Part shown: in pieces, positions 21,658 through 46,660 of the stretch
How the letters are laid out: the number at the start of each line of letters is the position of its first letter
Position numbering within the stretch: position 1 is the stretch's first letter
Source of the DNA: an uncultured Ignavibacteriaceae bacterium
GTDB taxonomy: Bacteria > Bacteroidota > Ignavibacteria > UBA10030
Length of the DNA: 64,000 nt
Assembly (NCBI GenBank): GCA_964581115.1
Contig: CAZOMY010000010.1
Span: forward strand, 8,764-72,763
Reading direction: 5' to 3'
Position numbers and translations under genes: made by a program
Notes under the pieces: model-generated
Told to the model about the DNA's origin: nothing
Databases searched by the model: none
The model's input: the letters and a program-made list of their open reading frames with translations, nothing else

Positions 21658-22677
21658 TCAGAACTGCACGCCGAGGGTGATCTTCTGAACGCTGGCCAGG
21701 CGCGCAAAGTCCTGGTACGCGTAATCAAGGCTTAACCGCACATTGCCGATGACATACTGACGGACACCCAGGCCGAGCGCCAGGCCTTCCTCCGAGTCGG
21801 CAAGGAAGAGGGTCTTGTATCCTCCGCGTACATACAGCACGTCGTTGAACTGGAACTCGCCTCCGACATTCACGCTCTCGAAATCGTCGCTGGGGTGCTG
21901 TGCGTCGGCCGCGAGCGTCAGATGGCCCACCTCGCCCATCGGCAGGTCGTAGGCCAAGCCGACGCGAAAGTTGAGAGGAAGCTCCCATTCCTCCGTGGCC
22001 AACTGGGCGGGGATACGGCCGTTGTTGCCCGAACCCGACGGGTCCGGGTCATAGAGCACCAGCGCGTTGTTCCCCTGCATCTGTATCTTCGTCCCGAAGT
22101 TGGAGATCGACATGCCGAGCGTGAACCCTTCGAACGGCGTGCGGTATTTGACGCCAAGGTCGATGGCGAAGGCCGTCGCGCTCATCTTCCAGATCTTCTG
22201 GTGGACGAACTTCGGCGTGAACCCGATGGCGAATGCGTCCGTCAACTTGATGCCGTACGACAATCCCACGGCCAGGTCGGAGACCCCGAACACCTCTCCC
22301 GTCCCCTCCTGACGCTCGACGGTCGTCACCGCCATGTCGCCGATGTTCGACATCGTCACGCTGAAACCGACAACCCCGATCGGTCCGGCCGAGACCGTCG
22401 CACCGACGTAGTTGTAGGTGATATCGGCGATCCACGAAGTATTGTCGACCAGGAATCCAATGCCCTCGAGATCTGCAAGGCCGGCGGGGTTCCAGTAGAG
22501 GGCCGACGGGTCATTGACCACGGCCACGAACGCCCCGCCCATGGCCATGCCGCGGGCTCCCTGCGCGATCGAGAGGAAGGTCGCGGCGGTCGTGCCGCGC
22601 TTCGAGACATTCTGCCCCACGACGGTCGTGCCGACGGCGATGAGGCCCAAGAGCAATCCGAGAACGATCCGTTTCAT
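21658..22677 (-). CDS. PorV/PorQ-like outer membrane beta-barrel
   Basis: Signal peptide; GTTAATFLSIAQGARGMAMGGAFVAVVNDPSALYWNPAGLA N-terminal motif; alternating beta-strands; ends in aromatic GVQF. Confidence 0.85.
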   Translation of the reverse strand: MKRIVLGLLLGLIAVGTTVVGQNVSKRGTTAATFLSIAQGARGMAMGGAFVAVVNDPSALYWNPAGLADLEGIGFLVDNTSWIADITYNYVGATVSAGPIGVVGFSVTMSNIGDMAVTTVERQEGTGEVFGVSDLAVGLSYGIKLTDAFAIGFTPKFVHQKIWKMSATAFAIDLGVKYRTPFEGFTLGMSISNFGTKIQMQGNNALVLYDPDPSGSGNNGRIPAQLATEEWELPLNFRVGLAYDLPMGEVGHLTLAADAQHPSDDFESVNVGGEFQFNDVLYVRGGYKTLFLADSEEGLALGLGVRQYVIGNVRLSLDYAYQDFARLASVQKITLGVQF

Positions 22678-22684
22678 GTTCGCC

Positions 22685-25600
22685 TCACTTCACGATCGCG
22701 AATTTACCGACATGCTCGCCGACTCCGGGGGCTTCGACGTGGTAGATGTACAGACCGTAGGCGACCTCCATCCCGTCGTCGGAGATGAGGTTCCAGGGCA
22801 ACGATCCATCCATCGGCGACGAGTTTTTTCGAAGCGTCGCGACGAGTCCGCCGCTCACGGTGTAGATGCGCACCGTACATTGGGCCGGGAGGTTCTTGAA
22901 CTCGATCTTGCGTTCGCCCCGCCCCGTCACATACAACGTACGCCGCTCCCACGACGCGGTTGCGATGTAAGGGTTCGGCACGACCGCGATCCGGTCAAGG
23001 CCGTTTTTGGCGCCCTCAAGGTCGGTCCGCGAGCCGCGCGTCGTGAACTGGAACTCGTCTCCCGTCAGGAAAGGCCGGAGCGTCTTGATGAGATACCGGT
23101 CGTCCGGTTGAGGATAAAGCGTGTCGGCTCCGAACGGCCGGCCGTACGTCAGCTTCCACGTGAACTTGAAGTTCGACGGACTGACGAATTGCTCCAGCAC
23201 CCGGATCGTGTCTCCAATGCTCAACGTGTTTGAACCGTCGATGTCGTGCACGATGAATTTCGACCGCCCGCCCGTCCACAGGTTGGTGACGGTGAAATTG
23301 ACCGGCATCAGGGGATACTTCGACGCTGGTGCATTCAACGCCGTCGTGTCGACCACATGGTCGAACCACTTGATCTCGTAATCGGTCGGCCATGCCACGG
23401 CCCGCGAGGTCACCGTCATGTCGCGCGCCACGCGCATGAACAGGTTGCTGCGGCCGACCACCCATCCGGTCGCGGAGTCATTCAGCACCACGGCGGTGTC
23501 ATTGGCCACCGACAGCACCATTCCGTCGAACGGCGGCGAGAACCGTCCGGCCCCGATGTTGGCACTATCCAGGCCCCGATACAGCGTGTCCGTCACCGTT
23601 CCGGTCGTTCGGAACAGATCATACGATCGTGTTCGGTAGGCAGGAACGGTCGAATCGGCCTTGAAGCGGACGGTATACCGAGCCCCGTCGATCACCTGGC
23701 TCGGGTCAAGGATGATCAGACCGAGCGAGCCAGTACCGAGGCCGGAGGTCACCCGTTGAAGATCCCCCTCTGCCGTCGGCGGCTGGTAGCCGGCGGCCGG
23801 TCCGTTGGGAGTCACGACCGCACAGTTGATATCGATGAACTTGAGCGAGCCGGCGAAATCCTCCGTGATGATCTTGGTGCACTCTGTCGGCTGCAGCCCT
23901 TTTGTGCCCCGGTTCGGATCACCGGTGTCATACGAGACGAGGGCATAGTAGTAGCGAACGCCGTTCAGGACGGTCGTGTCGATGTAGGAGTGGACGAGAC
24001 CGGTGTTGGAGCCCCGCCAGAAGCTCGCGCCGTTGATCCCCACAGGGTCAGGTCCCGCGATGCTGTCGACGATGTCCCACTGAGCGATCGGCTTCCAGTA
24101 CTTGCCGGATCCCTTGGAATCCGTGATGATCTTGATATCGTTGAATTCCGCCTCCGTACTCCGGTACAGAAGATACCCCTCGAAATCCCTCTTATAGCCC
24201 TTCGAAGGGTCGCTCGGATCCTGGAGACCCATGAAGCGGTCCACGGAGCGTTCCGCCGTGTTGTCCCAGTAGAGGAACACGCGGCCATTCCCCGGTACGG
24301 CGGTCAAGCGCGGCGTGAAGGGCGGCTTGGAGAAGTTGTAATTGGCGTTATAGATCTCCTGGACCGTTTCCTTGTTGAAGATCAGGTCATCGAGGTTCTC
24401 GCCGAGAGCGAGAGCCATGGAGAAGCGCTCCCGCCTCCCTTGCCGGAGCGGGAACGGCCCCGACGAAAAGGTCATGCTGATGTTCGTGTTGGCAATGGCC
24501 GTGTCACGGAATCCGCTGTTCATCTTCTGCCAGATGATCTCGTCATTCTTCGGCCAGCCGCCCGACGGTCCCTTGTCGGCCAACGCCCAGATCGCCGCCG
24601 AAGAGAGACCGATCTGGTCCGACTCATCCTTGTCCGTCTGATCGAAGTTCGGTTCGCCCGTCGTCGGAACGCCGTCTCCCTCCCCCGGATCCGGCCCGGA
24701 GTACTGCAGGTCGGTCGGACCGACGCCGTCCCGTCCCAGGTCGTCGTTCAGCGGCTCACCGGGATCCCATGTTCCGCTGGCATTCAGATCGGTGAAGGAC
24801 ACCCAGTCGTTGTCATTGTCAAGGAGGTCGTCGCGGCGTTCGTCGATCATGCCGTCTTCGTCGTCGTCGAGCCCGTTCAGGGCATTGCCGGGGCTCTCGA
24901 GGTAGGCGTAGCCGACGTAGCCCGTTTTCCAGTTGTCGGGCACCCCCATGCCGCTGGTATTCCATGCGTAGGCCAGGTCCAAGAGCGAGTTGTACCGTGC
25001 GCTGTTGCCTGATGCGCTCGGTCCGCCCACACCGGGGTCGGTGTAGAAGCCGAAGCAGGTCGAATCGTAGTCCCAATCGGAGATGTTGACGATGTCGTAG
25101 TGCCAGAAGATGATGTCCTCCGCCAGAACGTGCGACCACTGAAAGCCGCGCACTTCGACGCGGAATCCGAGACCTCCGCGGGCGGAATCGCCGGCGACCG
25201 GATAGTAGAGGAATGGCGGCCGCGTGAACTCACGGTCTTTCGAGTCGTCCATGACGAAGAAGGTCTCCAGGTCGGAGTTCGTCACGCCCCGTCCGAAGTA
25301 GCCGTACCAATGACCGTTCCATGATGGGTCAAGGCCAAGCGCCGACGGCCAGAACCGAGGGAACGTGGACGTGTCGCGGTTGACGGCCGGGGTGGGCGTG
25401 GGTCGACGGCTGGGGTTGTCGTATCCCGGCACCGGCTGCAAGACCCACTCCATGCCCGTAACCGGGTCTCGATCGACCTCCTCGCGGTATGCCGACAGAA
25501 TGGGAGAGATGATGTTCCCGTTGCCGGGAGCGATCGTGCGCGCACCGATGAGAACGGCGACGCCGTCCATGTACGAGTGATTCGTCCCCTTGGGCCACAC

Positions 25601-26131
25601 CACCGACGGCTGGAAATTCCATTTAGCCACTTCGCCGTGGTTGTAGAACAACGTCGAGATGAGGTTGCCGTTCATGACCCCCTCTCGACGGGCCGTCACA
25701 TCGCCCAGCCGGTCTGCGCGGTAGACGATCGTGCTCGGGTCGAGCACGACATCGCCAAAGGCCGTCACCCGCACCGGTCGCGGAACCGTCGAGGAATTGC
25801 TCGTGAACGTGACGGACGCGGTGTCCAGACCGGCTTTGCGCGGACGCCAGGTCATCGTCACCTGAAAGGAGTCTCCCGGCGCGATGACGGCGAGAGCGGG
25901 ACCGAGCTTGAGGGCGAAGTTCGATGAAGCCGCTGCGGAGATGGTCAGCAGACCCGAACCGGTATTCTTCACGAACAGCTGGGTCGAGGCGATCGGCTGA
26001 CCCACCCTCACGCTCCCGAGATGGAGGGAATCGGAGTTCGGCGTCAGGACGGGTTGTGCCACGGCGGACGTCGCGCCGGCAAGGAGGAGTGCGCACACAT
26101 GCGTTCGGATCACGGTCAGCTCCTGGACCAT
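22685..26131 (-). CDS. Large secreted protein of unknown function: Ig-like (ASH-type) domain, conserved core, acidic Ca-binding-like repeats, Fn3, atypical CTD
   Basis: Signal peptide (start ATG 26131 or GTG 26113, which has AGGAG); DSLHLGSV...LFVKNTGSGLLTI Ig domain; GNLISTLFYNHG core; DDDEDGMIDE/DNDND repeats; PRLTAVPGNGRVFLYW; C-terminal IAVVPNPY...IEFKNLP...IRIYTVSG-like...GLYIYHV...KFAIVK. Confidence 0.85.
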   Translation of the reverse strand: MVQELTVIRTHVCALLLAGATSAVAQPVLTPNSDSLHLGSVRVGQPIASTQLFVKNTGSGLLTISAAASSNFALKLGPALAVIAPGDSFQVTMTWRPRKAGLDTASVTFTSNSSTVPRPVRVTAFGDVVLDPSTIVYRADRLGDVTARREGVMNGNLISTLFYNHGEVAKWNFQPSVVWPKGTNHSYMDGVAVLIGARTIAPGNGNIISPILSAYREEVDRDPVTGMEWVLQPVPGYDNPSRRPTPTPAVNRDTSTFPRFWPSALGLDPSWNGHWYGYFGRGVTNSDLETFFVMDDSKDREFTRPPFLYYPVAGDSARGGLGFRVEVRGFQWSHVLAEDIIFWHYDIVNISDWDYDSTCFGFYTDPGVGGPSASGNSARYNSLLDLAYAWNTSGMGVPDNWKTGYVGYAYLESPGNALNGLDDDEDGMIDERRDDLLDNDNDWVSFTDLNASGTWDPGEPLNDDLGRDGVGPTDLQYSGPDPGEGDGVPTTGEPNFDQTDKDESDQIGLSSAAIWALADKGPSGGWPKNDEIIWQKMNSGFRDTAIANTNISMTFSSGPFPLRQGRRERFSMALALGENLDDLIFNKETVQEIYNANYNFSKPPFTPRLTAVPGNGRVFLYWDNTAERSVDRFMGLQDPSDPSKGYKRDFEGYLLYRSTEAEFNDIKIITDSKGSGKYWKPIAQWDIVDSIAGPDPVGINGASFWRGSNTGLVHSYIDTTVLNGVRYYYALVSYDTGDPNRGTKGLQPTECTKIITEDFAGSLKFIDINCAVVTPNGPAAGYQPPTAEGDLQRVTSGLGTGSLGLIILDPSQVIDGARYTVRFKADSTVPAYRTRSYDLFRTTGTVTDTLYRGLDSANIGAGRFSPPFDGMVLSVANDTAVVLNDSATGWVVGRSNLFMRVARDMTVTSRAVAWPTDYEIKWFDHVVDTTALNAPASKYPLMPVNFTVTNLWTGGRSKFIVHDIDGSNTLSIGDTIRVLEQFVSPSNFKFTWKLTYGRPFGADTLYPQPDDRYLIKTLRPFLTGDEFQFTTRGSRTDLEGAKNGLDRIAVVPNPYIATASWERRTLYVTGRGERKIEFKNLPAQCTVRIYTVSGGLVATLRKNSSPMDGSLPWNLISDDGMEVAYGLYIYHVEAPGVGEHVGKFAIVK

Positions 26132-26135
26132 CTTC

Positions 26136-28859
26136 TCAGAAATTCCACGTGACACCCAACCGTACCTGGCGCGGTGCCGAGAACGAGGCTGGGTTGTTGA
26201 CATACTCGTCGATCGTGTTCAGGCCGATGATCCGGCCTGCGAGGTACGTGTAAAGGTCGATATTCGCTCGTCCGCTGGCGGTATTGACGCCGTACTCGTT
26301 CTTCGTGTCGAGCAGGTTGTACACGAGCGCGAACACGGTGAGATCCACCGGGCCGAACGAGATGGTCTTTTCAGCCCGTAGGTCGACGTTGAAGGTCGTC
26401 GGTCGGGTGCCGCCGTTCTCGAAACGGAGGCCGTTCGACACGCGTACATCTTCGGTGTATGGGAAGCCATTCCCGTACTGTGCGATCAGGCCGACGTTCC
26501 AGTCGCCCGGGTCGCCCACCGTCACCGAGACGTTCAGCGTCGAACGCTGGTCCCAGTCGAGCGGCACGACCTTCTTGTTGGTTTCGGTGGGCGGATCGGT
26601 CTGGTTGTTGTAGTACACGGCATACGGGTCGGAAGCGTTCCCCTCGGCGATCTGATAGGTGTAATCGGCCCGTACACTGAAGCCGCCGATGAAACGCCGC
26701 TCGAGGCTCAGGATGAACCCCTTCACGTTCGCATAGTCTCGATTGATGAAACGCGAGAACCGGAAGCCTTCGTAGGTGCTCAGGATCTCCATCCCGAGCA
26801 GATTGCGGATGTCCCGATAGTAGATGGTGAAATCGAGACCCAACTGACCGAAGAGCACCTGCTGCAATCCGAGTTCGTACATCACCGTTCGCTGCGCTTC
26901 GAGGTCCGGATTGCCGAGAATGCTCGAAAGGTTGTCGCCCTGGTTGACGAGATAGTTGGAGTTCAGGTAGAGGTTCTCGAAACTCGGGATCTGGAAGAAG
27001 TGCCCATACGAGAAGTGGATGATCCCTTCGTCGGTGATCGGGAACGATACACCGAGCCGTGGACTCACCTGGACCTTCGGCGTCGTCTCTTTGACACGAC
27101 CGGCGTTCGGAAACTCCGGGTTCCCCGACGGGTTACGCAGGTCGAGTGGATACGACGCGTTCGGGTTGAAATAGTCCACCCTCACACCTGCATTGATGAT
27201 CATGATATCGAATTCGATCTTATCCTGCGCGTAGGCGGAGAATTCGTACGGCTCCTTGAAGTAGAGCGTGTGGCCCGACGTGCCGACATCCGGATAGCCG
27301 ATCTCAAAGAGGAGGGCCCCGGTACTGTCCGTCAGCACGGTGTTTCGGTTCAGGATCGTCTTCCAGTGGTTGTAGATCTCGTGCATGCGTCCCTCGATGC
27401 CGATACCGATCTTGTGGTGGGCATCGAGCTGGGACGAAAGCGACCACTGACCGATCCACGACCGGGTGTGACGGTCGTAGCGGTCGGAGGCCTGTCCGCC
27501 TGAACGGAAGGTGTAGTTCGAAATGGGCGTTCCCTGCGAGGGGTCGACATACCGGGGGTCGAACTCGTCCTCGTACACATAACCCTTGTAGTCGAACTGA
27601 TTGTACGATGCCTTGAAGGTCTGGTAGGTATTCGCCGTCGGAGAATGGGTGACCTGGAATGACGAGACCCAGTTCGTCCGGTAGTGGTTCATGATGCCGT
27701 CGGGCGTTCGGGAGAATCCATGATCATAGTACTTGTTCCAGTGGTCCTCCCACAGCAGACTCCCGCTGAACTTCAGATACCCCAGGCTGTACGAAAGCTT
27801 CCCGTTCGCCGTGGTGCGCTTCGTGGGATTCATCGGGACATACGCACCGTCTCCGGAGTGAGGGATGATATAGACCGGATCGCCGTTCGGCAACAGGATC
27901 GCATTGCCGATCGGGTCGCGCAGCTGGTACGGCGAACGGTCCGATGTTCGGAACACACGACGGCCGTACAAGTAGCCGTCGTCCTGGTATGCGCGCAGGC
28001 TGCCGAAGAACGAGAATCCGCCGGCGATCGGGCCGCTCAGGCTTCCCTGAATGTTGGCCGTCCGGAACGGATCGACCTGTATCAGGTTCATGTAGGTGGA
28101 ATGGTGCGACGTGATGTAGTCGCCCGCATACATCGACAGGGAGCCGTGGAAATCCGAGGCCCCCTCCTGTGTGACGATATTCACGACGCCCGACATTGCC
28201 TGGCCGTACTCCGCGTTGAAGGTGCCGCTGATGACCTCCATTTCGCGGATCGTCGTATTGTCGACCTCGACGCTCATGCGGCCGTTGAACGGGTCGACCA
28301 CCGAGACGCCGTCGATGAGGTACGCCACTTCGTTCGACCGACCGCCGCGGAAATGGCCGCCGACGACACCCGCCTGAATGTTGACCACCTGGCTCAGGTT
28401 CTCCGTCGGGATGCGCTTGAGGTCGTCCGCCGAGAGTGTCACAGAGCTCGACGTCAGGTCCTTCTGGACCAGCGGCCGCTCGGCTCGGACGATGACCTCC
28501 TGTCCTTCGATCGCTTCCGCCTGTAACTTGGCGTCGACGCGGGTGGTCTGGTCGATACGTACCTGCACATTCGTCACCGTCGTCCGGCGATAGCCGACGT
28601 AGCTCACCACCACTTGATACACCCCGGGAGGGATGTTGTTGATCGTGTAATGTCCGTCGACGTCGGTCGTCGTTCCCAGGGTCGTACCGACCAGCAGAAC
28701 ATTCGCACCGACGAGCGGCTCGCCCGTCGTGTCGTCGGTGATCGTGCCGGCGATCTTACCGGTCGTGCCGCCCAACACCAGGGCGGGTATCAGCAGGAGC
28801 ATCCACAGCAGACCGGCGGCGCGGCCGCCGCGCTCGAAGTGGCGTCGGAAGGGATTCAT
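26136..28859 (-). CDS. TonB-dependent receptor (carboxypeptidase-regulatory-like N-domain + plug + barrel), not SusC-type
   Basis: GTTGKIAGTITDDTTGEPLVGANV; plug HFRGGRSNEVAYLIDGVSV...MEVISGTFNAEYGQAMSGVVNIVT; barrel SPRLGVSFP...FSYGHFFQ; terminal PRQVRLGVTWNF. Confidence 0.93.
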   Translation of the reverse strand: MNPFRRHFERGGRAAGLLWMLLLIPALVLGGTTGKIAGTITDDTTGEPLVGANVLLVGTTLGTTTDVDGHYTINNIPPGVYQVVVSYVGYRRTTVTNVQVRIDQTTRVDAKLQAEAIEGQEVIVRAERPLVQKDLTSSSVTLSADDLKRIPTENLSQVVNIQAGVVGGHFRGGRSNEVAYLIDGVSVVDPFNGRMSVEVDNTTIREMEVISGTFNAEYGQAMSGVVNIVTQEGASDFHGSLSMYAGDYITSHHSTYMNLIQVDPFRTANIQGSLSGPIAGGFSFFGSLRAYQDDGYLYGRRVFRTSDRSPYQLRDPIGNAILLPNGDPVYIIPHSGDGAYVPMNPTKRTTANGKLSYSLGYLKFSGSLLWEDHWNKYYDHGFSRTPDGIMNHYRTNWVSSFQVTHSPTANTYQTFKASYNQFDYKGYVYEDEFDPRYVDPSQGTPISNYTFRSGGQASDRYDRHTRSWIGQWSLSSQLDAHHKIGIGIEGRMHEIYNHWKTILNRNTVLTDSTGALLFEIGYPDVGTSGHTLYFKEPYEFSAYAQDKIEFDIMIINAGVRVDYFNPNASYPLDLRNPSGNPEFPNAGRVKETTPKVQVSPRLGVSFPITDEGIIHFSYGHFFQIPSFENLYLNSNYLVNQGDNLSSILGNPDLEAQRTVMYELGLQQVLFGQLGLDFTIYYRDIRNLLGMEILSTYEGFRFSRFINRDYANVKGFILSLERRFIGGFSVRADYTYQIAEGNASDPYAVYYNNQTDPPTETNKKVVPLDWDQRSTLNVSVTVGDPGDWNVGLIAQYGNGFPYTEDVRVSNGLRFENGGTRPTTFNVDLRAEKTISFGPVDLTVFALVYNLLDTKNEYGVNTASGRANIDLYTYLAGRIIGLNTIDEYVNNPASFSAPRQVRLGVTWNF

Positions 28860-28870
28860 AGGATCGGCGG

Positions 28871-28906
28871 AGAAAAGAAAGGGGCGCACCGGGGTGCGCC
28901 CCTTTC
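28871..28906 (-). terminator. Intra-operon intrinsic terminator/attenuator
   Basis: 14-bp perfect inverted repeat GAAAGGGGCGCACC-NN-GGTGCGCCCCTTTC followed on the minus strand by TTTTCT; 8 nt after the stop at 28915. Confidence 0.75.
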
Positions 28907-28914
28907 CGGGTTGG

Positions 28915-31419
28915 TCACTTCACGAGCAGCATCTTCCGGATGGCGGCGTTGGCTCCCGCCTCCAGCCGGAGGAAGTACACGCCGGATGCGATCGAGCGAC
29001 CCGACCGGTCGGCGTTGAACGTGACGACATACGAGCCGGCGTCCTGCGTGCGGTCGACCAGCGTCTCGACCTCGCGGCCCATCATGTCATACACCCGCAG
29101 ACTCACAGGACCCGACGTTGGAACGCTGTAGCGGATCTCCGTGGTGGGGTTGAACGGATTCGGATAGTTCTGGCCCAGCTCAAACGACGTCGCAACGTCG
29201 CTCACCTGTTCGACGCCGACCGTCGAGGACTTGTCGCCGATCCAGGTGTAGGTCCAGTAGAACATGTCGCTCCACGAGTTGTCGTTCGTCAGCGTCGAGT
29301 AGCACATGATGCCATCGCGCGTCGCCTTCGTGTCGCGGTCGTTGATGGCGAAGTCGATCGGGATGCGCATGCCTTCCACCGGCGAGAAGAGCGCGTCGCC
29401 GGCATGGAGCGCCGCCAGGTCCGTCCAGCGGATGCGCGCTTCAGACACGTAGCCCGGCGAAAGCAGCTTCTCCGTCCAAGCATAGTCGGCGCTGATGGTG
29501 TCAACCCGCTTGCCGCCGTTGTCGAGCCAGATGCGGTGCTTCGAGAACCGGAGGTGATAGTCCGGGGTCGCGCCGCGCGTGTAGCCTGAATGCCGCTTCC
29601 CGCGCCAGTCATACAAGCCCACGAAGATATCGGCGCAATCCTGCTCGTAGTCCGTCGCACCGATATCGACCAGAACGACGTCGTCGGTGACGTCGAAAGC
29701 GACATAGAGATAGGTCGCGTCCATGGCGACATAGGCCGTCGCCGACAGGTCGTTGTCGCCCGTGATCGGGAAATTCGGCACGGCATGCGCCGTTCCCGAC
29801 ACCGTCGACAGGACGAACGGCGTGATCGTCGACCATTCAGACAGATCGCCGTCGGCCGTAAAGGTCGCTGGACCCGTCTTCGAGATCGTCGGCACGCCTT
29901 TCGCCAGCGTCGTCACCGGGGTCGTCATGATGACCGGCGAACTCTCGTTGCCGGCCGGGTCCTTCGACACGACGCCGTAGTAGTAGGTGAGATTCGCATC
30001 GGTCTTCGGAACGCGGAGCGGATGCGTCGCCACCGCGCTGGTAATGTTGTACGGCGGCAGGTCTTCGACTGTCGAGTCGTCGACGGCGGTCCACGGATGG
30101 TCGGCGAAGTACACGTTGTAGCGAATGCCCGGCTCGTTCGGGACGTCGTTCCAGGTCACCAGATTGACGTAGCCGGTGCCCGCGCCCGCAAGGCCTGAAG
30201 GCGCATCCGGCGGAATGACGTCAAACTCGGGCGCCCCGGTCCACAGGTCGGTGATGTAGATGACCTTGCCTGCGATGCCGGAAGCTTCGGCCATGATGCC
30301 GAACGTGTTGACGTTCGACGAGTCAAAGCCCGTCGTGCCGTCCTGATAGACCATGTTTCGGAGGGCAAAGATGTAGTCGTGCCATGCACCGTCGGCGGTC
30401 GGGGTGAAGACCACGCCGACCTTTCCCTTCTGGCTGGGATCGCCCAGACGCGGAGACTCGAACTGAACGCGAAGCGCGCCGACCCCTGCTTCAGCCTTCA
30501 TCTTGAACTTGAGGCTGTCCTTCACCCAACCGCCGGCGAGGTTGAAACCGGGGTTGATGTCGAAGCCGATACCCGTCCAACCGTTGCCCCATTCGTTGCC
30601 CTGCGTCCACTTGATGGCGTTCGTCTTCGGCAACGGACCGGCGTTTAACTCGAGCGTGATCGATGATTGGCCCCAAGCCCACTTATTCGTGATCTGCGGC
30701 GAATAGTCGCGACCGTTGAACATAACGGCCGGCACCGCCCGCAACCCGAACCGCTGGAAACCGTCCAGCTTGAATTCGAGCGAGTCGGCCGGGAGGTTGG
30801 CACCCGGGTCCCAGCCAGAAGTCACGAACGCGATCTTCCAGCCGACGATCTTGTCGCGGTCGAACTTCTTGTTGTTGTAGGTGAAGCCGCCCCAGTTCGT
30901 CGGGGCGTAAACAAAGCCGGCGTCGCTCGGGACCGTCGAGCCGTCCGAGACCCGCTCGGTCAGGGGGATCTTCAGATTGACCCAGTCGCTCACGGCATCC
31001 AGGATCGTCGCGTTCTCATACAGCCAGTCCTCTCGCGTACCATCCGTCGAGTCGACGAGGTGGATGCGCATGACCATATTCGCCGGGATCTTCGGCGCTT
31101 CGGTCACCTTGATCCAGATGCTGACGGAATCGCTGATGCTGATGTCGACCACGGTACCGCTCGGCCAGCGCGCCTCGATCTGCGAGAAGGAACCCCATCC
31201 ATGGAACGCACCAATGGCCGTCCGGATGTTCGTCGAAGCGATCCCCTCCTGCTTGTCGGCGAGGTCTTGCGTCATCCTGATGTACGTCGGAGCCCCTTCC
31301 GACGCAAAAAAGAATGCCGAATCGGGATTCGGGGTATCAAAGGACTCGATGACCGTCTGGCCGAATGCCGGAACGGCAACGAGCGCCATGATGACCAGTA
31401 GGAACTGTAGCATCCGCAT
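28915..31419 (-). CDS. Non-catalytic T9SS cargo with two galactose-binding-fold/CBM-like domains, Fn3-like and CBM9/DOMON-like sugar-binding domain
   Basis: Strong RBS AAAGGAGA; signal peptide; aromatic-rich jelly-roll-like segments; DVIPPDAPSGL Fn3 start; ADGDLSEW...DLSATAYVAMDATYLYVAFDVTDD CBM9-like; CTD QNYPNPFNPTT...SGVYFLRL. No GH catalytic motif recognised. Confidence 0.75.
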   Translation of the reverse strand: MRMLQFLLVIMALVAVPAFGQTVIESFDTPNPDSAFFFASEGAPTYIRMTQDLADKQEGIASTNIRTAIGAFHGWGSFSQIEARWPSGTVVDISISDSVSIWIKVTEAPKIPANMVMRIHLVDSTDGTREDWLYENATILDAVSDWVNLKIPLTERVSDGSTVPSDAGFVYAPTNWGGFTYNNKKFDRDKIVGWKIAFVTSGWDPGANLPADSLEFKLDGFQRFGLRAVPAVMFNGRDYSPQITNKWAWGQSSITLELNAGPLPKTNAIKWTQGNEWGNGWTGIGFDINPGFNLAGGWVKDSLKFKMKAEAGVGALRVQFESPRLGDPSQKGKVGVVFTPTADGAWHDYIFALRNMVYQDGTTGFDSSNVNTFGIMAEASGIAGKVIYITDLWTGAPEFDVIPPDAPSGLAGAGTGYVNLVTWNDVPNEPGIRYNVYFADHPWTAVDDSTVEDLPPYNITSAVATHPLRVPKTDANLTYYYGVVSKDPAGNESSPVIMTTPVTTLAKGVPTISKTGPATFTADGDLSEWSTITPFVLSTVSGTAHAVPNFPITGDNDLSATAYVAMDATYLYVAFDVTDDVVLVDIGATDYEQDCADIFVGLYDWRGKRHSGYTRGATPDYHLRFSKHRIWLDNGGKRVDTISADYAWTEKLLSPGYVSEARIRWTDLAALHAGDALFSPVEGMRIPIDFAINDRDTKATRDGIMCYSTLTNDNSWSDMFYWTYTWIGDKSSTVGVEQVSDVATSFELGQNYPNPFNPTTEIRYSVPTSGPVSLRVYDMMGREVETLVDRTQDAGSYVVTFNADRSGRSIASGVYFLRLEAGANAAIRKMLLVK

Positions 31420-31452
31420 ATGCGGTCTCCTTTGAGACAGTGAAAGGGTGAT

Positions 31453-31469
31453 TGCAGATTGGCTGCCAG
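31453..31469 (-). promoter_or_regulatory. Sigma-54 (-24/-12) promoter of the 14-gene locus
   Basis: Minus strand cTGGCAGCCAATCTGCA, GG-N10-GC; predicted start near 31442, about 23 nt before ATG 31419; a sigma-54 activator is encoded 260 bp upstream. Confidence 0.75.
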
Positions 31470-31732
31470 GAGCGCCGACGGCCTGTTGACTGGCAGCCGG
31501 GGACCACCTCCAAGACCGGCTGTGGAATCAATCTTCGTACCACGCTGAGTTGCCTGTTTTCCGTCAACAGAGGGGAATGCGACGGCGATAGAGAGCAAAA
31601 AATTATCGGAACAATAATATCCCTTCCCGCTACCAACAGCGTGGATCCGCCTTCGCAAGGAGGCCGAATCCTCAAGAAATGAACGAATTGAACGTTTATG
31701 AAGGGTGGACCGTGCTGTGGACCCGACAGGGA

Positions 31733-33193
31733 TCAGGACTTGAGCCCCAAGTCCTTGCACATTCGATGATAGTTCGGGGGTGCCAGGCCAAGTTTCTTCG
31801 CGGCCTCGGCATCGGAAGAGGAATTCGACCGGACAAACTGGAAATACCGGAGACGGAACAACCTCTCCATCTCACGCAACGGCAAAAGATCGTCCGTACT
31901 GCTGAAAGCAATAGTGTGCGGGCTGTCTGGCGGGGGGATCGCAGGGGCGAGGGAGAGGTATTCCGACACGATGTCGGCCGTGATCACCGACTCGCCCATC
32001 AGCAGCAGGCGCTGTACGACATTCTTGAGCTCGCGCACATTGCCCGGCCAGGCGTAACCGGCGAGCACGCGGTGGGCGCCGTCCTCCGTCATCGGCGCAG
32101 GCACGCCCATGTCGAGGCTCATCTGGCGGACAAAATGTTCCCACAAGACGGGAACATCCTCTTTCCGGTCCTTGAGCGATGGAAGGTGGATCGGCACGAC
32201 GTTCAGACGATAGAACAGGTCTTCGCGGAATCGACCGGAGGAGATCTCGTTCTGAAGGATCTTGTTCGTAGCCGCAATGATCCGGACATCGACCTTGGTA
32301 CGGTGTGTCCGTCCGATCTTTTCGATCTCGCCGTCCTGCAACACCCTCAGCAGCTTGACCTGCGCCGGCAATGGGAGCTCGGCGACCTCGTCAAGAAAGA
32401 TCGTTCCGCGATGGCCCGCCTCGAACAGGCCGATCTTGGGACGGTCGGCTCCCGTGAAGGATCCCTTTTCGTGTCCGAACAGTTCGCTCTCAACAAGATG
32501 ATCGGGAATGCTTCCGCAATTGATCGGCACATAGTTCTCCAGCCGGCGGCCGCTCTGATAATGGATCTGCGATGCCACGAGTTCCTTCCCCGTGCCCGAC
32601 GCGCCGCTGATCAAGACGGAGGCATCGGTTGAAGCCACCTGGCGGACCTGCGCCCGGACCTTTTGGATCGCAGGCGAGACGCCGATCAACCGCGTGCGAG
32701 CCAGCACCTCCTCGGCATTACGGACCAGTTTGCCTTCGGTTCGGTCCTGCTCGCGTCGCAGCCGGCGTTGTTCCGCTGCGTTGACAATGCTGAGGATAAA
32801 ATCCGTCGGCTGATAGATCGCCTCCTCAATGTCGGTCGGATACTTCGTGCAATACCAGAACGCACCGGACTTGAGAAGCCGGTTGGCGAACTCATAGTCG
32901 GTGATGTTCACCGTCATCTTGGTGATGACGATGATGGGCAGCGACGGTTGCCAGCGTTTGATCTCGCGAATGAGCGCCTCGCCCATCACACCACCCGCGA
33001 TCTGCATGTCCATGATGACGACGTCGAGGTTCTCCCCTTCCGCACGAACGAGGTCGATCGCCGCGTCGCCATGCGACACGACCTGCCGGATCTGCAGCTG
33101 TTCGGCGAAGGGCTGCAGCGTACGGCGGACGCGGCGCACGTCGAAAGCCTCGTCTTCGATCAGCAGGATCCGTACCGGGTGGGCGACGAGCAT
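31733..33193 (-). CDS. Sigma-54-dependent response regulator (NtrC/NtrX-like: REC + AAA+ + HTH)
   Basis: ILLIEDE, VIMDMQ (phospho-Asp), Walker A GASGTGKE, ESELFGHEKGSFTGA, Walker B IFLDEV, RFREDLFYRLNV, WPGNVREL, C-terminal AAKKLGL. True start 33193. Confidence 0.93.
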   Translation of the reverse strand: MLVAHPVRILLIEDEAFDVRRVRRTLQPFAEQLQIRQVVSHGDAAIDLVRAEGENLDVVIMDMQIAGGVMGEALIREIKRWQPSLPIIVITKMTVNITDYEFANRLLKSGAFWYCTKYPTDIEEAIYQPTDFILSIVNAAEQRRLRREQDRTEGKLVRNAEEVLARTRLIGVSPAIQKVRAQVRQVASTDASVLISGASGTGKELVASQIHYQSGRRLENYVPINCGSIPDHLVESELFGHEKGSFTGADRPKIGLFEAGHRGTIFLDEVAELPLPAQVKLLRVLQDGEIEKIGRTHRTKVDVRIIAATNKILQNEISSGRFREDLFYRLNVVPIHLPSLKDRKEDVPVLWEHFVRQMSLDMGVPAPMTEDGAHRVLAGYAWPGNVRELKNVVQRLLLMGESVITADIVSEYLSLAPAIPPPDSPHTIAFSSTDDLLPLREMERLFRLRYFQFVRSNSSSDAEAAKKLGLAPPNYHRMCKDLGLKS

Positions 33194-33210
33194 ACGCGAA
33201 TGGGGATCGT

Positions 33211-34713
33211 TCAGGCCGTGAAGGCGAAGGTGAATCGGGCGCCGCTTCCCGGGATGTTCTCTGCATTCAGCGACCACCCGAGACGTTGGGTGGCGATCTC
33301 GTGAGCGATGAAGCAGCCGTAGCCGGAGTGTTCCTTGGATCCTTGGGGCGCGGCGCTGACATGCTCCAGGAACAGCCGCTGGATGCCTCGGACGTCGGGC
33401 TGAAGCAGTTCGTTGCGGATGCCACGGCCATTGTCCTCGACGACGATCGTGGCCTGCCGGGAGGATGCGTCGTAGGTTGTGCGCACGTGCACCACGACGC
33501 CTGCAACGCCCGCGTGGTCGAGGGCGTTCTGGAGCACCGGTTCGACGATCTCCCACAGGACATATTCATTGACGGCGACGCAAGGCAGGTGGGGGTCGAG
33601 GTCGAGGTCGAACCGGAACGTGGAGGTTCCGCCGGCGACACGGCGGAAAATGTTGTCGACCAAGAATCGAAGGACCTCGTTGATGTCGGTCGAGAACATC
33701 GGCCCGCGCACGGTCTGGATCGGCGGGTCGTACCATTTCATATCATAGATGACGCGGGCAATGAAGCTGGCGTACTTGCCGATGCGATACCGCACCTCCT
33801 CCATGTTGGCCACGGTCATCGAGCGGAGATCTTCCTTGATGAAGCCTCCGATCTTCTCAGCCTTATGGTGGGCATGATAGATCCTCTTGGCGAAGATCGT
33901 CTCTTTTTGATGATGGATCTCATCGGCCAGATGGCGCTTCTGCTCCTCGAACAGCGCCTGGAGGGCGTCGTTCCGCTCGCGGAGCGTGCGCGTCGACACC
34001 ACGTACATCCCAAGAAACCCTATGAAGATCAGGCCGGCATAGACCAGCGCCGTCTGGTCGTTGATCGCCGAAAGGGCGCCGGTCAAGAATGAGAGGTCGG
34101 GGGCGCTCTTCATATAGACGGCCCCGGCAAACTCACCCTGCGGCACAAAGGGCACGAACACGTGAAAAGCCCCGAGGTCATCGACCACGGTGGTGATCTG
34201 CTCCCGATGGCGCAGACGCGGCTCCAGCATGCGGTACCATCGCAAGGCTTCGGCATGCGCGACCGTATCGCTCCGAACGTGTCCCCCCTCGCGGTACAGC
34301 AGCTCGAACAGCTCTTGCCCGTCGTCCACGATCGCGAGTCCCTCCGGCCCTCGGATGAGAATGCAGACACTCTGGACGTTCTTGTCGAGCAACTGTTGGC
34401 TGAAGATGATGTTGAACTCCTGCACGATCTGCAGGGCCCGGTCGTCGCTCATCGACTGTCGCGTCGGGTGCGATTCGAGCAGCAGTTCGATCGACGTGGC
34501 TGAAAGGTTGGCGATGCGTTCGGCGGCGTCCTGTCGGTACCACTGCTGGGTCTGGTCGAACACGTCGTGGAGCGCGCTTTGGTTCAGGAACAGGACGATG
34601 ATTTGAAAGCCGATCAACACCAACAGCAGAACGGTGAGATGGCGGATCTCGAACCGGTATTTGCGCAGCGGATGCAGGAGCGCTGCGAAACGGGCCTGGA
34701 AATCGGGCCTCAT
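33211..34713 (-). CDS. Membrane sensor histidine kinase with periplasmic domain and atypical H-box
   Basis: Two TM helices flanking a ~190 aa periplasmic domain; HATPase VLQNALDH, VEDNGRGI, HSGYGCFI; H-box region reads RIYHAHHKAEKIG. Confidence 0.8.
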   Translation of the reverse strand: MRPDFQARFAALLHPLRKYRFEIRHLTVLLLVLIGFQIIVLFLNQSALHDVFDQTQQWYRQDAAERIANLSATSIELLLESHPTRQSMSDDRALQIVQEFNIIFSQQLLDKNVQSVCILIRGPEGLAIVDDGQELFELLYREGGHVRSDTVAHAEALRWYRMLEPRLRHREQITTVVDDLGAFHVFVPFVPQGEFAGAVYMKSAPDLSFLTGALSAINDQTALVYAGLIFIGFLGMYVVSTRTLRERNDALQALFEEQKRHLADEIHHQKETIFAKRIYHAHHKAEKIGGFIKEDLRSMTVANMEEVRYRIGKYASFIARVIYDMKWYDPPIQTVRGPMFSTDINEVLRFLVDNIFRRVAGGTSTFRFDLDLDPHLPCVAVNEYVLWEIVEPVLQNALDHAGVAGVVVHVRTTYDASSRQATIVVEDNGRGIRNELLQPDVRGIQRLFLEHVSAAPQGSKEHSGYGCFIAHEIATQRLGWSLNAENIPGSGARFTFAFTA

Positions 34714-36014
34714 TTGAGCAACACCGTGTTCGTGCGGACCATGGCGTCGGCCTGTCGGAGAGCGTCGTCGACGGCCAGCTCACCCCGGATCGCACGGTGG
34801 AAGTAATGCGAGACGACGTCGGACGTGCGGGTGTAGTCGACGATCATCGGTCGGTGAAAGCCGCGCTGGACGAGTCCGTGGTAGAAGGAGAGTTCGGGAT
34901 GCGCAACGATCAGGCTCGAATCGCGATACACCTCCGAATGGACCGGAATGAAGCCGCTCCGTACGAACAGGAGCCGCTGCGAGCGTGGGGCTTGAAGGAA
35001 TCTGATGAATTCAACCGCCTCGGCCTTCTTCAACGAAGCACGCGAGACCATCAGGTTCCATCCGCCGAACACCGACCGCGAAGCGCCGCCTCGGCTGTGC
35101 GGCAGGGGCGCCCGTCCCACCGAACGAAGCTTGGCCGTGTCCGGGTAGAACCCGGCGAAGTTCTCGATAAAATTCGGCCACCCTCGCACGAAGACGGCGT
35201 CGCGGTCCAGGAAGTACCGATAGCTTTGATTCTCGTCGAAGACGGTCGCCTCCGCCGGCGTCCACCCCTCCTGCACGAAGCGTATAAGACGTGCCAGAGC
35301 AGATTTCGCCGCCGGTACTCTCATATCGAGCCTGTTCCGATCGAGATAGGTGCTGTCGTCTCCCATAGCTTGTTCAAGGAAGCAACAGACCAGGCCTTCG
35401 TAGGCCTTGGCAGGGTAGAGAAAGAACGGGCGATGCTCGTACCCCATGCGCCGGCGCAGCGCATCCAGTTCGTCCCATGTCATCCCCTCCTGCAATCGCC
35501 GCTCGACCGCCGCGCCGTCGGGCAGGCTTCGAATGAGGTCCCGCCGATAGTAGAGGAGCCCGACGTCGAGATACATCGGAGCCGCGACGAGCGTGTCGCC
35601 GACGATGCACGAGGACAGCGCCGTGGCCATGAACTTGTTGCGCTCGTCGGGAGGAAAGTAGGCGTCGAGCGGCTCTCCCCACCGGGCGAACCTTGAGACC
35701 CAGATCAGGTCCACCGCGAACACGTCGAGCTTCTCGCTCTTGCTGCGCAGGGAGCGCGCAAGCAACTCCTTGCGCTCATTCGTCGAGAATTTGTCGAATG
35801 GCAGGTCGACCGGCACCACTTCGATCCGGCCGGCATAACGACGGTTAAACTCGGCGATCAGCTCGCGATGAGCCTGCGAGATATGGTCGGCGTAGTAGAC
35901 GCGAACCGGATCGGAGCCGTTGGCCGGGCCCAATGGAGGTCGGAGGTACGCGTTCAGGGCCAGCAACAGCGCAAAGCTGGCCGCCACGAGCAGGGCAAGG
36001 TTCCTCAGCCGCAT
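34710..36014 (-). CDS. Extracellular sugar-binding protein (ABC SBP family 1 fold) with no ABC permease/ATPase nearby
   Basis: LDVFAVDLIWVSRFA, DVGLLYYRRDL, TWDEL, YEGLVC, AVFVRGWP, SVFGGWNLMVS, EAVEFIRFL; ATGA overlap with the kinase. Confidence 0.88.
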   Translation of the reverse strand: MRLRNLALLVAASFALLLALNAYLRPPLGPANGSDPVRVYYADHISQAHRELIAEFNRRYAGRIEVVPVDLPFDKFSTNERKELLARSLRSKSEKLDVFAVDLIWVSRFARWGEPLDAYFPPDERNKFMATALSSCIVGDTLVAAPMYLDVGLLYYRRDLIRSLPDGAAVERRLQEGMTWDELDALRRRMGYEHRPFFLYPAKAYEGLVCCFLEQAMGDDSTYLDRNRLDMRVPAAKSALARLIRFVQEGWTPAEATVFDENQSYRYFLDRDAVFVRGWPNFIENFAGFYPDTAKLRSVGRAPLPHSRGGASRSVFGGWNLMVSRASLKKAEAVEFIRFLQAPRSQRLLFVRSGFIPVHSEVYRDSSLIVAHPELSFYHGLVQRGFHRPMIVDYTRTSDVVSHYFHRAIRGELAVDDALRQADAMVRTNTVLLK

Positions 36015-44255: not shown

Positions 44256-44280
44256 CGATCTGTTCCGCCGATGTGGAGGT

Positions 44281-44370
44281 GACCACGAAGAGCACGAAGC
44301 CACACGAAGAAATGATGCGACAGCTGAATCTGCAAAAAATCACTCCGTGCTCTTGGTGCCCTTCGTGGTT
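44281..44370. repeat. Inverted doublet of 9-10-mer tandem units (CACGAAG / CTTCGTG)
   Basis: GACCACGAAG AGCACGAAG CCACACGAAG, 33-nt spacer, CTCCGTGCT CTTGGTGCC CTTCGTGGTT. Confidence 0.75.
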
Positions 44371-44371
44371 C

Positions 44372-46042: not shown

Positions 46043-46159
46043 GGCGACTCCCTGAACGTTCGAGCGCCAAAGTACCGACAAGCCGACCCAATTTCAAACG
46101 GGTTGAACATCTCAAGAAGGTGGAGTACGTTTCCAAACAGACAAACTGCAGGTCAACTC

Positions 46160-46660
46160 ATGACACGACGTCCATTCATCTTCACGATCCTGTCCCTCGC
46201 ATCGACGGCCATCCTTTCGGCCCAGCAGGTGGAGGAACCGCCGATCCCTGTGATGATCGTCTGCCCGTATCATGAGGATAGTCTGCGTCGGGCGTACGAG
46301 TCAGACTTCGCGATGGACGGCAACCCCCAGCGCCATCAGTTGGACTCGGTCAGCCTCCGTGCCATTCGGGCTGCTACGGACATGTCGGCGCAGATGGAGC
46401 GGTCGTTCACATTCTTGTATCTCCTTCTGGCCATCCTGGCCCTGACTTCGATCGCCGCCCTTCGTGTGGCCTATCGGCTGAGGTCGGAGTTGCAGGACCT
46501 GCGTCGGTCACAGCACGTTCCGACTCTCTCGTTGCCCGCTCCCGTGGTCGTCGATTCGTCGCCGCTTCGCAGCCCAAGCCGGAAAAACTCAAGACCGAAA
46601 CCCACCCAACGACCGTCCAAGGTCAATCGATCTTCAGGGCGTCCCCGTTCCCGTCGTTGA
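46160..46660 (+). CDS. Hypothetical membrane protein (signal peptide, one TM helix, Arg/Ser/Pro-rich tail)
   Basis: MTRRPFIFTILSLASTAILSAQQ; TM FTFLYLLLAILALTSIAAL; fills the gap divergent from the amidohydrolase. It is the last 166 aa of the 808-aa track ORF. Confidence 0.65.
   Translation: MTRRPFIFTILSLASTAILSAQQVEEPPIPVMIVCPYHEDSLRRAYESDFAMDGNPQRHQLDSVSLRAIRAATDMSAQMERSFTFLYLLLAILALTSIAALRVAYRLRSELQDLRRSQHVPTLSLPAPVVVDSSPLRSPSRKNSRPKPTQRPSKVNRSSGRPRSRR

Follow-up and report, generated by a model that had tools for sequence, protein, structure and literature searches.

The gene at positions 28915..31419 on the minus strand of a 64,000-nucleotide stretch of DNA from an uncultured Ignavibacteriaceae bacterium (the whole stretch is called the window below) probably encodes a non-catalytic beta-glucan capture protein that is exported by type IX secretion (the T9SS) and serves the adjacent TonB-dependent importer. 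The gene, referred to here as the target, had been singled out in an earlier note made from the letters of the DNA alone, and the list of open reading frames (ORFs) with their translations confirmed exactly this interval, with an ATG start and 834 amino acids. The glycan-binding reading proposed in that note is the best-supported explanation of the data, as suggested by the predicted folds of the modules, by the putative sugar clamp of a family 9 carbohydrate-binding module (CBM9), and by the TonB-receptor cassette that surrounds the gene in beta-glucan loci. However, the descriptions of the target as a lead gene and of its modules as new CBM families had to be corrected. From this evidence we infer the binding of glycans and its specificity, the retention of the protein at the surface, its abundance, and its physical association or cooperation with the receptor.

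The translated target consists of a Sec signal peptide followed by five all-beta modules in the order D1, D2, FN3-like, CBM9, and T9SS C-terminal sorting domain (CTD). For the analysis of these modules, an alignment and profile of 74 homologous sequences was used, 56 homologues were scanned for Pfam domains, and the models of the full-length target and of D2 alone were searched against PDB with Foldseek. The AlphaFold2 model obtained with the 74-sequence alignment had a mean predicted local distance difference test (pLDDT) score of 88.6 and contained five domains, all of them beta-sandwiches. The signal peptide MRMLQFLLVIMALVAVPAFG (31360..31419, minus strand, like all modules of the target) was read from the translation. 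It is of the Sec/signal peptidase I (SPase I) type, with the cleavage site between AFG and Q and with Gln21 as the mature N-terminus, and has no Cys and no lipobox; in the model it forms a helix at residues 2-18, with a low pLDDT at residues 16-20. Gln21 is kept in at least 90% of the 74 homologues, in keeping with the "Q-rule" (pyroglutamate) of secreted proteins of Bacteroidetes.

Pfam and NCBIfam recognised just two modules of the target, CBM9_1 and the type-A sorting domain. The CTD (residues 745-834; 28918..29187), which had been predicted earlier, was matched by TIGR04183 over residues 752-831 (39.6 bits against a cut-off of 23) and by PF18962 (29 bits against 27), and the profile also matched the cargo CTD chain 8glj_D. 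The FN3-like spacer (residues 400-511; 29887..30222) was recognised from a weak profile match of residues 399-495 to the FN3 domain of chitinase A1 (1k85, E 0.035), from weak fn3 and Tissue_fac matches in the homologues, and from a seven-strand beta domain in the AlphaFold2 model. The target is also rich in tryptophan, as had been noticed: Trp makes up 3.1% of its residues against 1.66% in 20 other ORFs of the window, and reaches 3.9% in D1, 4.6% in D2, and 3.5% in CBM9.

The domain described earlier as CBM9-like (residues 512-738; 29206..29886) was matched by Pfam PF06452 (CBM9_1) over residues 554-722, with 67.5 bits against a threshold of 23.4 (E 1.8e-18), and the same family was matched in all 56 homologues scanned. 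Against PDB, it matched 1i82 (TmCBM9-2, from T. maritima) both by profile (E 2e-10) and by Foldseek, with a template-modelling (TM) score of 0.81 normalised to the target and a root-mean-square deviation of 3.2, while 7nwo/7nwn from C. kristjansonii were matched by Foldseek with TM scores of 0.73-0.74, and 7nwn by the sequence profile as well. The identity to TmCBM9-2 and to CkCBM9.3 (7nwn) is 20-23%. In the alignment, the clamp residues Trp71 and Trp175 of TmCBM9-2 correspond to Y591 and W716 of the target, and D597, H622, and R624 stand at the positions of its polar residues Glu77, Gln96, and Arg98. Position 591 is occupied by Tyr in 60 and by Trp in 14 of the 74 homologues, and position 716 by Trp in 47 and by Tyr in 27; both clamp positions are thus aromatic in 74/74, and D597, H622, and R624 are invariant in the same set. 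CkCBM9.3 has a Tyr89/Trp191/His114 clamp and binds cello-, xylo-, and xyloglucan-oligosaccharides, mainly via their reducing ends (PMC8280721). The target module resembles it in having a Tyr/Trp clamp and a His at the position of Gln96. Known CBM9s are attached to xylanases of Gram-positive bacteria or Thermotogae, whereas the CBM9 of the target is part of a non-catalytic T9SS cargo protein and stands directly before the CTD. Judged by these residues, its sugar site looks functional.

The two N-terminal modules are more distant from known families. D1 (residues 21-226; 30742..31359) was recognised as a beta-sandwich, distantly similar to CBM11/CIA30, from an orthologue and from the model. The orthologue P0040, which is 52% identical to the target, was matched by Pfam CBM_11 over residues 19-158 (E 1.5e-7; 32.1 bits against a gathering threshold of 27). 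One of the 56 homologues reached E 0.013 with the same family, the match in the distant paralogue P0312 was faint, and P0332 matched D1 in three stretches and had a CIA30 Pfam match of its own. The D1 of the window itself stayed below the threshold of PF03425. No PDB sequence was matched by the D1 of P0040, or by residues 1-400 of the target when the profile of 74 homologues was used. D1 is all-beta in the model, and the full-length Foldseek search gave a CBM22 tandem and CBM11. The sequence comparisons thus point to a distant relationship between D1 and CBM11 and not to membership in this family.

A separate model of D2 (residues 227-399; 30223..30741), a Trp-rich beta-sandwich, had a pLDDT of 96.7. 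Its best Foldseek matches were CBM30 structures (1wzx/1wmx; TM 0.70-0.74, E 4e-8, identity 12-15%), and D2 thus has the fold of CBM30; NDUFAF1/CIA30 and CBM11 (6r31) followed with TM scores of 0.66-0.68. The further matches included the CBM-like N-terminal domain of GH50 agarases, CBM8, CBM44, and the laminarin-binding X584 (8qx6), as well as CBM22, CBM29, CBM16, and CBM4, the whole list being at 10-17% identity. The neighbours that superposed best globally were non-catalytic CBMs, several of which bind beta-glucans. By sequence, D2 does not belong to CBM30, which was reached by one of the 56 homologues at E 0.012. The earlier suggestion of new CBM families was therefore overstated for D1, since P0040 passes the CBM_11 threshold, but stands in part, mainly for D2, which combines a CBM30/CBM11/CIA30 fold with 12-16% identity and no sequence-family match, so that its fold would be known but its sequence family might be new. 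The Foldseek check of single domains that had been proposed, run for D2 and the full-length model, found CBM folds. No relationship between D1 and D2, hence no duplication, was detectable by hhalign.

To collect relatives of D1 and D2, residues 21-400 were compared exhaustively by phmmer with 1.84 billion cluster representatives, of which only 114 matched at E <= 1e-3, including full-length relatives down to ~25% identity. Each module was found apart from the other in different T9SS cargo proteins: D2 without D1, followed by CBM9_1 and a CTD, and D1 without D2, ahead of five FN3 domains and a CTD. In some relatives, CBM_4_9 or LTD stands N-terminal to D1-D2, and in others D2 is joined with CBM20, dockerin, or cohesin. 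Two relatives are carbohydrate-active enzymes, namely P0347, in which a glycoside hydrolase (GH) domain of family GH20 is followed by two D2-like modules, and P0331, in which a D1-like module is combined with an esterase. Occurrence within such enzymes is what CAZy asks of a CBM, and it is found here, while most occurrences are in non-catalytic proteins. This separate and shuffled occurrence indicates that D1 and D2 behave as mobile CBMs. The arrangement of a variable head followed by FN3, CBM9, and CTD is a recurrent scaffold, also present in the locus L003 with a Laminin_G_3 head. That locus and L081 were the sole useful ones from a scan of genome contigs with the family alignment; the scan was otherwise discarded, as its matches were due to NYPNPFNP, a generic motif of CTDs, and were nearly all unrelated CTD proteins. 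It should be noted that P0273 and P0345 carry a D2-like module and CBM9_1 together with dockerin and cohesin in T9SS cargo, which, on sequence grounds, hints at cohesin-dockerin assemblies on T9SS-secreted proteins.

Full-length homologues of the target are numerous (more than 320 at 47-87% identity), and their annotations say nothing more than "hypothetical", "T9SS type A sorting domain-containing", or "sugar-binding" protein. The target belongs to a four-gene cassette, which also includes a TonB-dependent receptor that is not of the SusC type, a CTD protein of ~1,100 amino acids, and a paralogue of PorV/PorQ. This cassette was found in the window and in seven other loci (L001, L002, L083-L086, and L088) from Ignavibacteriales, Calditrichia, and Bacteroidota metagenome-assembled genomes (MAGs), with GH16, GH3, GH5, GH9, GH12, GH30, or GH2 genes as neighbours. 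The nearest locus, at 80% identity, is L086 from a "Bacteroidetes bacterium" MAG. The receptor (26136..28859, minus strand), in which Pfam recognised CarboxypepD_reg, plug, and barrel domains, adjoins the target orthologue in all eight loci and scored 78.8 bits with the SusC/RagA family TIGR04056, against a cut-off of 368. Domain scans of the window found no SusD family member in any ORF scanned. By its gene content, the locus serves the utilisation of beta-glucans and lacks both SusC and SusD. As far as the literature could be searched, neither the family nor the cassette was found to be described, and a 2026 review on transporters of glycosides did not mention them either.

The signals around the target gene suggest strong expression. 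The Shine-Dalgarno (SD) sequence AAGGAG (31427..31432, minus strand) lies 7 nt before the ATG and had been considered the strongest ribosome-binding site in the locus. Its duplex with the anti-SD sequence (-8.9 kcal/mol) was indeed the best among 17 start sites; the PorV-like gene came second (-8.3), and most genes of the locus have no SD. The orthologues have GGAGG-type SD sequences in L083, L084, L085, and L002, and a weaker GAGAGGA in L001. A terminator-like hairpin with a T-tract (28871..28907, minus strand) occupies the 55-nt gap between the stop codon of the target and the ATG of the receptor gene. It consists of a 14-bp GC-rich stem followed by TTTCTTTTCT, and in RNAfold had a free energy of -27.3 and a z-score of -4.7, with 0/200 shuffled sequences as stable. 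The consensus terminator scan did not list this hairpin, though it was clear in RNAfold. In 8/8 loci, the stop codon of the target orthologue is followed by a stable hairpin, with a stem of 11-17 bp and a sequence unrelated to the others, and the keeping of structure without conservation of sequence favours a functional role as an attenuator or in stabilising the mRNA. In either role, it would increase the output of the target relative to the downstream genes. The conserved strong SD and the conserved hairpin thus indirectly support the earlier view of an abundant product, and together they would be a neat example of how the stoichiometry of an operon's products is controlled.

A sigma-54-type -24/-12 element, TGGCAGCCAATCTGCA (TGGCAG-N5-CTGCA; 31453..31468, minus strand), is located 33 nt before the ATG, between a sigma-54 activator gene and the target. 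The number of such motifs in the window is at the chance level (14 matches vs 11.8 expected). However, L083 (a perfect TGGCAC-N5-TTGCA), L084, and L001 have such an element at the equivalent place after the activator gene. The description of the target as the lead gene fits this locus, but leading is no property of the family: the gene next upstream of the target is the sigma-54 activator in 5/8 loci, while in the other three the target is preceded by a GH2-CTD gene and an SSF transporter gene or by SSF and SurA-like genes. Upstream of the -24/-12 element, the palindrome TTATTG-TTC-CGATAA (31603..31617, minus strand) is a candidate enhancer, or upstream activating sequence. Palindromes of the TTATYR-TTC-YGATAA type occur, likewise upstream of the element, in the same intergenic region of L083, L084, and L001 and may serve the NtrC-type activator as enhancer.

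The target shares several features with the SGBP-B and SusE-F proteins of the polysaccharide utilisation loci (PULs) of Bacteroides. Like them, it is a non-catalytic protein of several beta-sandwich domains, and its gene lies beside that of a TonB-dependent importer of glycans, within a GH locus induced by substrate; the full-length Foldseek search matched SGBP-B from the PUL for beta-1,3-glucan in B. thetaiotaomicron (7kwb, E 4e-5). By analogy, the common role would be the capture of glycans at the surface. Meanwhile, the target has no lipoprotein anchor, as there is no Cys in its signal peptide, and would be exported and anchored through the T9SS CTD; it is not beside a susC/susD pair; and it is predicted to be under sigma-54 and an NtrC-type activator instead of a hybrid two-component system or an extracytoplasmic function (ECF) sigma/anti-sigma pair. 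The absence of a lipobox, of a SusC/D partner, and of any sequence relationship bears out the earlier statement that the target is unrelated to these proteins.

Three further systems were used for comparison. CHU_1279 of Cytophaga hutchinsonii, which the target would resemble most in function, is a CBM22/CBM11-like tandem that binds cellulose and is an essential part of an atypical PUL (PMC12016534). The target, compared with it by description and not by sequence, is similar in having two CBM-like beta-sandwiches of ~170-200 amino acids in tandem, which resemble the Xyn10C CBM22 tandem (4xup) and CBM11, in the atypical SusD-less PUL for beta-glucan or cellulose, and in an identity that does not suffice to place it in a CAZy family. 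In contrast to CHU_1279, which has 375 amino acids and two modules only, the target adds FN3, CBM9, and the T9SS CTD, and its cassette partners differ. In the cellulosomal CBM11 (1v0a/6r31) and CBM30 (1wzx/2c24) of Clostridium thermocellum, the concave beta-sandwich type-B fold of D2 is recognisable (TM 0.66-0.74). These modules bind beta-1,4 and mixed-linkage glucans, which is consistent with the GH content of the locus, but the identity is 10-15% and the window protein is below the thresholds of both families. Finally, the gene order described for Rmar_1069-1072 of Rhodothermus marinus, namely a two-CBM CTD protein, a TonB-dependent receptor, a hypothetical CTD protein, and a hypothetical protein, is similar to that of the cassette, but the first gene of this xylan cluster, unlike the target, encodes a catalytic GH10 xylanase (PMC6987092). 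The folds are already known, as is the idea that accessory proteins bind glycans at the surface, while the mode of anchoring, the partners, and the sequence families of D2 and possibly D1 are new variants.

These observations can be combined into a model of how the target would work. It would be exported by Sec, processed by SPase I, moved across the outer membrane by the T9SS via its type-A CTD, and probably stay at the cell surface. The CBM11-like D1 and D2, with its CBM30/CBM11 fold, would be cleft-type modules held off the sorting domain by the FN3-like spacer, and the Tyr591/Trp716 clamp of CBM9 would grip the ends of glucan or oligosaccharide chains. Jointly, the modules may bind beta-1,3, beta-1,4 and/or mixed-linkage beta-glucans as well as the fragments that the T9SS-exported GH16, GH5, GH9, and GH3 enzymes of the locus would release from them. 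Their capture would concentrate the fragments beside the non-SusC receptor for import. Transcription is predicted to start from the sigma-54 promoter under the control of the upstream module of solute-binding protein, histidine kinase, and NtrC-type activator, and the strong SD together with partial termination after the gene would give the target the highest expression within the operon.

The possibility that one of the modules is an enzyme was weighed against this model. D1 or D2 could be a jelly-roll catalytic domain of an undescribed GH or lyase family, with the other modules serving as its CBMs, but we regard this as very unlikely. The earlier note had seen no catalytic signature in the target, and the Pfam, NCBIfam, PDB sequence and profile, and fold searches found no catalytic domain either: no GH, polysaccharide lyase (PL), or carbohydrate esterase family was matched at any threshold. 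The full-length Foldseek search against PDB returned CBM9 (1i82) and the Xyn10C CBM22-1/CBM22-2 tandem (4xup), which covered D1-D2 over ~400 aligned columns, as well as CBM30, CBM11, CIA30/NDUFAF1, and the SGBP-B mentioned above. The only matches that superposed well globally (TM normalised to the target 0.6-0.8) were single-domain CBMs. The lowest E values belonged to the lambda tail-tip protein J and to receptor ectodomains, which were rejected, as they are chains of generic immunoglobulin (Ig)/FN3-like domains with a TM of ~0.1. The GH85, GH144, and xanthanase entries had a TM of ~0.2 over 276-329 columns, with no global superposition, and presumably align via accessory beta-sandwich domains and not via the catalytic domain. 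No catalytic jelly-roll family was in the full-length list, and the only one in the D2 list was a PL20 lyase at rank 35 (TM 0.48). In favour of an enzyme, the beta-jelly-roll fold is common to several GH and PL families, and the xylan cluster of R. marinus has a gene for a CBM4-CBM4-GH10-CTD xylanase before its TonB receptor (PMC6987092). D1 also has invariant acidic and basic residues (D55, R118, D123, E130, and D212), but the invariant acidic residues of CBM11/CIA30-type CBMs are commonly Ca2+ ligands, D1 is related to CBM11/CIA30, and the locus already has nine glycoside hydrolases. According to the sequence searches and the models, every domain of the target is most likely a binding, spacer, or sorting fold, and the protein is most likely non-catalytic.

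Two other explanations accept the absence of catalysis, and several observations weigh against glycan capture at the surface as the main role of the target. When D1, D2, and FN3 of the window protein were searched singly against Pfam, no match was obtained even at E 10, and none of the RNA runs searched contained the target sequence. The family keeps ~50% identity across phyla along its full length, with 51 invariant columns, and this unusual conservation suggests constraints beyond glycan binding, e.g., protein-protein contacts. In an Ignavibacteriales locus, L087 (1-11026), the receptor, a 1,163-residue protein, and the PorV-like gene are present, but neither an orthologue nor a remnant of the target was found; upstream are a GH5-CBM9_1 enzyme, GH30, and a 945-bp stretch without an ORF. 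The target thus appears accessory to the transporter core and not an obligate SusD-like partner. In C. hutchinsonii, variants of CHU_1279 deficient in binding still complemented and restored growth (PMC12016534), so that the essential role of an analogous protein need not be binding. A structural or assembly subunit would fit several of these points: it would mainly help to form or hold together a complex in the outer membrane with the receptor, the ~1,150-residue CTD protein, and the PorV/PorQ paralogue, the CTD possibly being held by the PorV-like barrel, while glycan binding would be secondary or dispensable. The strict synteny of the four genes in eight loci and the presence of a PorV-family barrel, PorV being known to bind cargo CTDs (PDB matches 6h3i and 8glj), speak for it in addition to the conservation and CHU_1279. 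Still, we consider this role unlikely. Conservation of the clamp and of the polar residues in CBM9 is that of a working sugar site, D1 and D2 are mobile modules of unrelated architectures, and the cassette in L087 does without the target. It is similarly improbable that the target is shed as a "glycophore" after cleavage of the CTD, binding soluble beta-glucan fragments or coating insoluble substrate, and acting in hemophore-like delivery, as an adhesin, or as a substrate-targeting factor. Type-A CTD cargo can be released instead of anchored, the expression signals suggest large amounts, and scavenging would profit from a set of modules that differ in their mode of binding, but the FN3 spacer beside the CTD is typical of surface-displayed proteins, and the tight synteny with the receptor favours local action. 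Surface capture of beta-glucans beside the receptor therefore remains the reading that we prefer.

The remaining genes of the locus were examined for their relation to this reading. The window has a G+C content of ~61%, and its DNA was detected in freshwater metagenome runs. On the minus strand, the locus starts with an SBP_bac_1 protein, a histidine kinase, the sigma-54 activator, the target, and the receptor. It continues with the ~1,150-residue protein, the PorV/PorQ-family barrel, GH3, a GluP-type MFS transporter, and a ROK kinase, followed by GH9-CTD, a 611-residue SurA-like protein, GH16, and GH3-CARDB-F5/8-CTD, and it ends with GH3-PA14, GH5, and GH16-malectin-CTD; a GH5-CBM6 gene is on the opposite strand. 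The periplasmic SBP_bac_1 protein, the histidine kinase, and the activator (31733-36014, minus strand) form a conserved sensor module, which precedes the cassette in five loci. The activator gene (31733..33556, minus strand; PF00158, E 2e-67) adjoins the target upstream. As listed, its ORF starts with GTG and encodes 607 amino acids, ~120 more than the orthologues (485-490 amino acids), and the true start is probably near 33190. Scans of the window with Rfam and for tRNAs gave no matches.

The ~1,150-residue cassette protein (22685..26131, minus strand; listed as the ORF 22685-26203, its true start being likely Met25 at 26131) keeps its position in all cassettes. It contains a choice-of-anchor-D/ASH Ig domain, Asp-rich repeats, and a CTD-like C-terminus (VPNPY...GLYIYHVEA), with matches to NF012200 (E 3.6e-15) and to a PorZ C-terminal-like domain. 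Its long Asp-rich stretch looks Ca-binding, and ~900 central residues have no relative in Pfam or PDB. The PorV/PorQ-family outer-membrane beta-barrel (21658..22677, minus strand) scored 215.6 bits with NF033709 against a cut-off of 90, but was below the equivalog cut-offs of PorV (83.7 vs 250) and PorQ (98.4 vs 220); it matched PorV in PDB (6h3i, E 2e-7). It is better conserved than the target, with 59-96% identity and 2,294 relatives at E<1e-10. The 611-residue protein (13368-15203, minus strand) is secreted and helix-rich and has no Pfam or PDB match. It was considered as a hidden SusD and rejected, as its own sequence and its counterparts in L002 and L088, which match SurA_N_3/Rotamase_2, indicate a SurA/PpiD-like chaperone. 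These SurA_N_3/Rotamase_2-like genes lie directly upstream of the target orthologue (L002 8484-9965; L088 133-1581), and the protein may be a periplasmic chaperone of this type dedicated to the system. At least six other proteins of the window have CTD or CTD-like (FlgD_ig/PorZ-type) matches, in addition to the PorV/PorQ-family gene, and none of the core T9SS genes (SprA, PorK/L/M/N, PorU) was found within the window. Outside the glycan locus, a T9SS CTD protein with a weak Peptidase_M66 match and a CarboxypepD_reg domain (48053-50017, minus strand) shows the extent to which the secretome of this genome uses the T9SS. Elsewhere in the window, two long ORFs overlap on opposite strands (44234-46660, plus; 44372-46081, minus), and the plus-strand ORF of 808 amino acids has no Pfam match.

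A wider proposal for the four proteins of the cassette can be offered tentatively, and we think it rather unlikely: the target, the receptor, the ~1,150-residue protein, and the PorV paralogue may form a dedicated outer-membrane machine for glycan import that replaces SusD. In such a machine, the PorV-like barrel would hold the sorting domains of the two CTD proteins, maybe uncleaved, and so tether a multi-CBM arm to the transporter. If this is true, it would represent a T9SS-derived, SusCD-independent type of polysaccharide utilisation common to Ignavibacteriota, Calditrichota, and some Bacteroidota.

Ignavibacteria and Calditrichia, which belong to the FCB group outside the classical Bacteroidia, are degraders of polysaccharides in which the capture and import of glycans are largely unstudied. 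The target family and its cassette are conserved across phyla and tied to sets of beta-glucan enzymes. If the target binds glycans as proposed, it would be a T9SS-linked counterpart of the surface glycan-binding proteins, would add one or two uncatalogued CBM sequence families, and would provide a concrete, testable model of SusD-independent glycan uptake.

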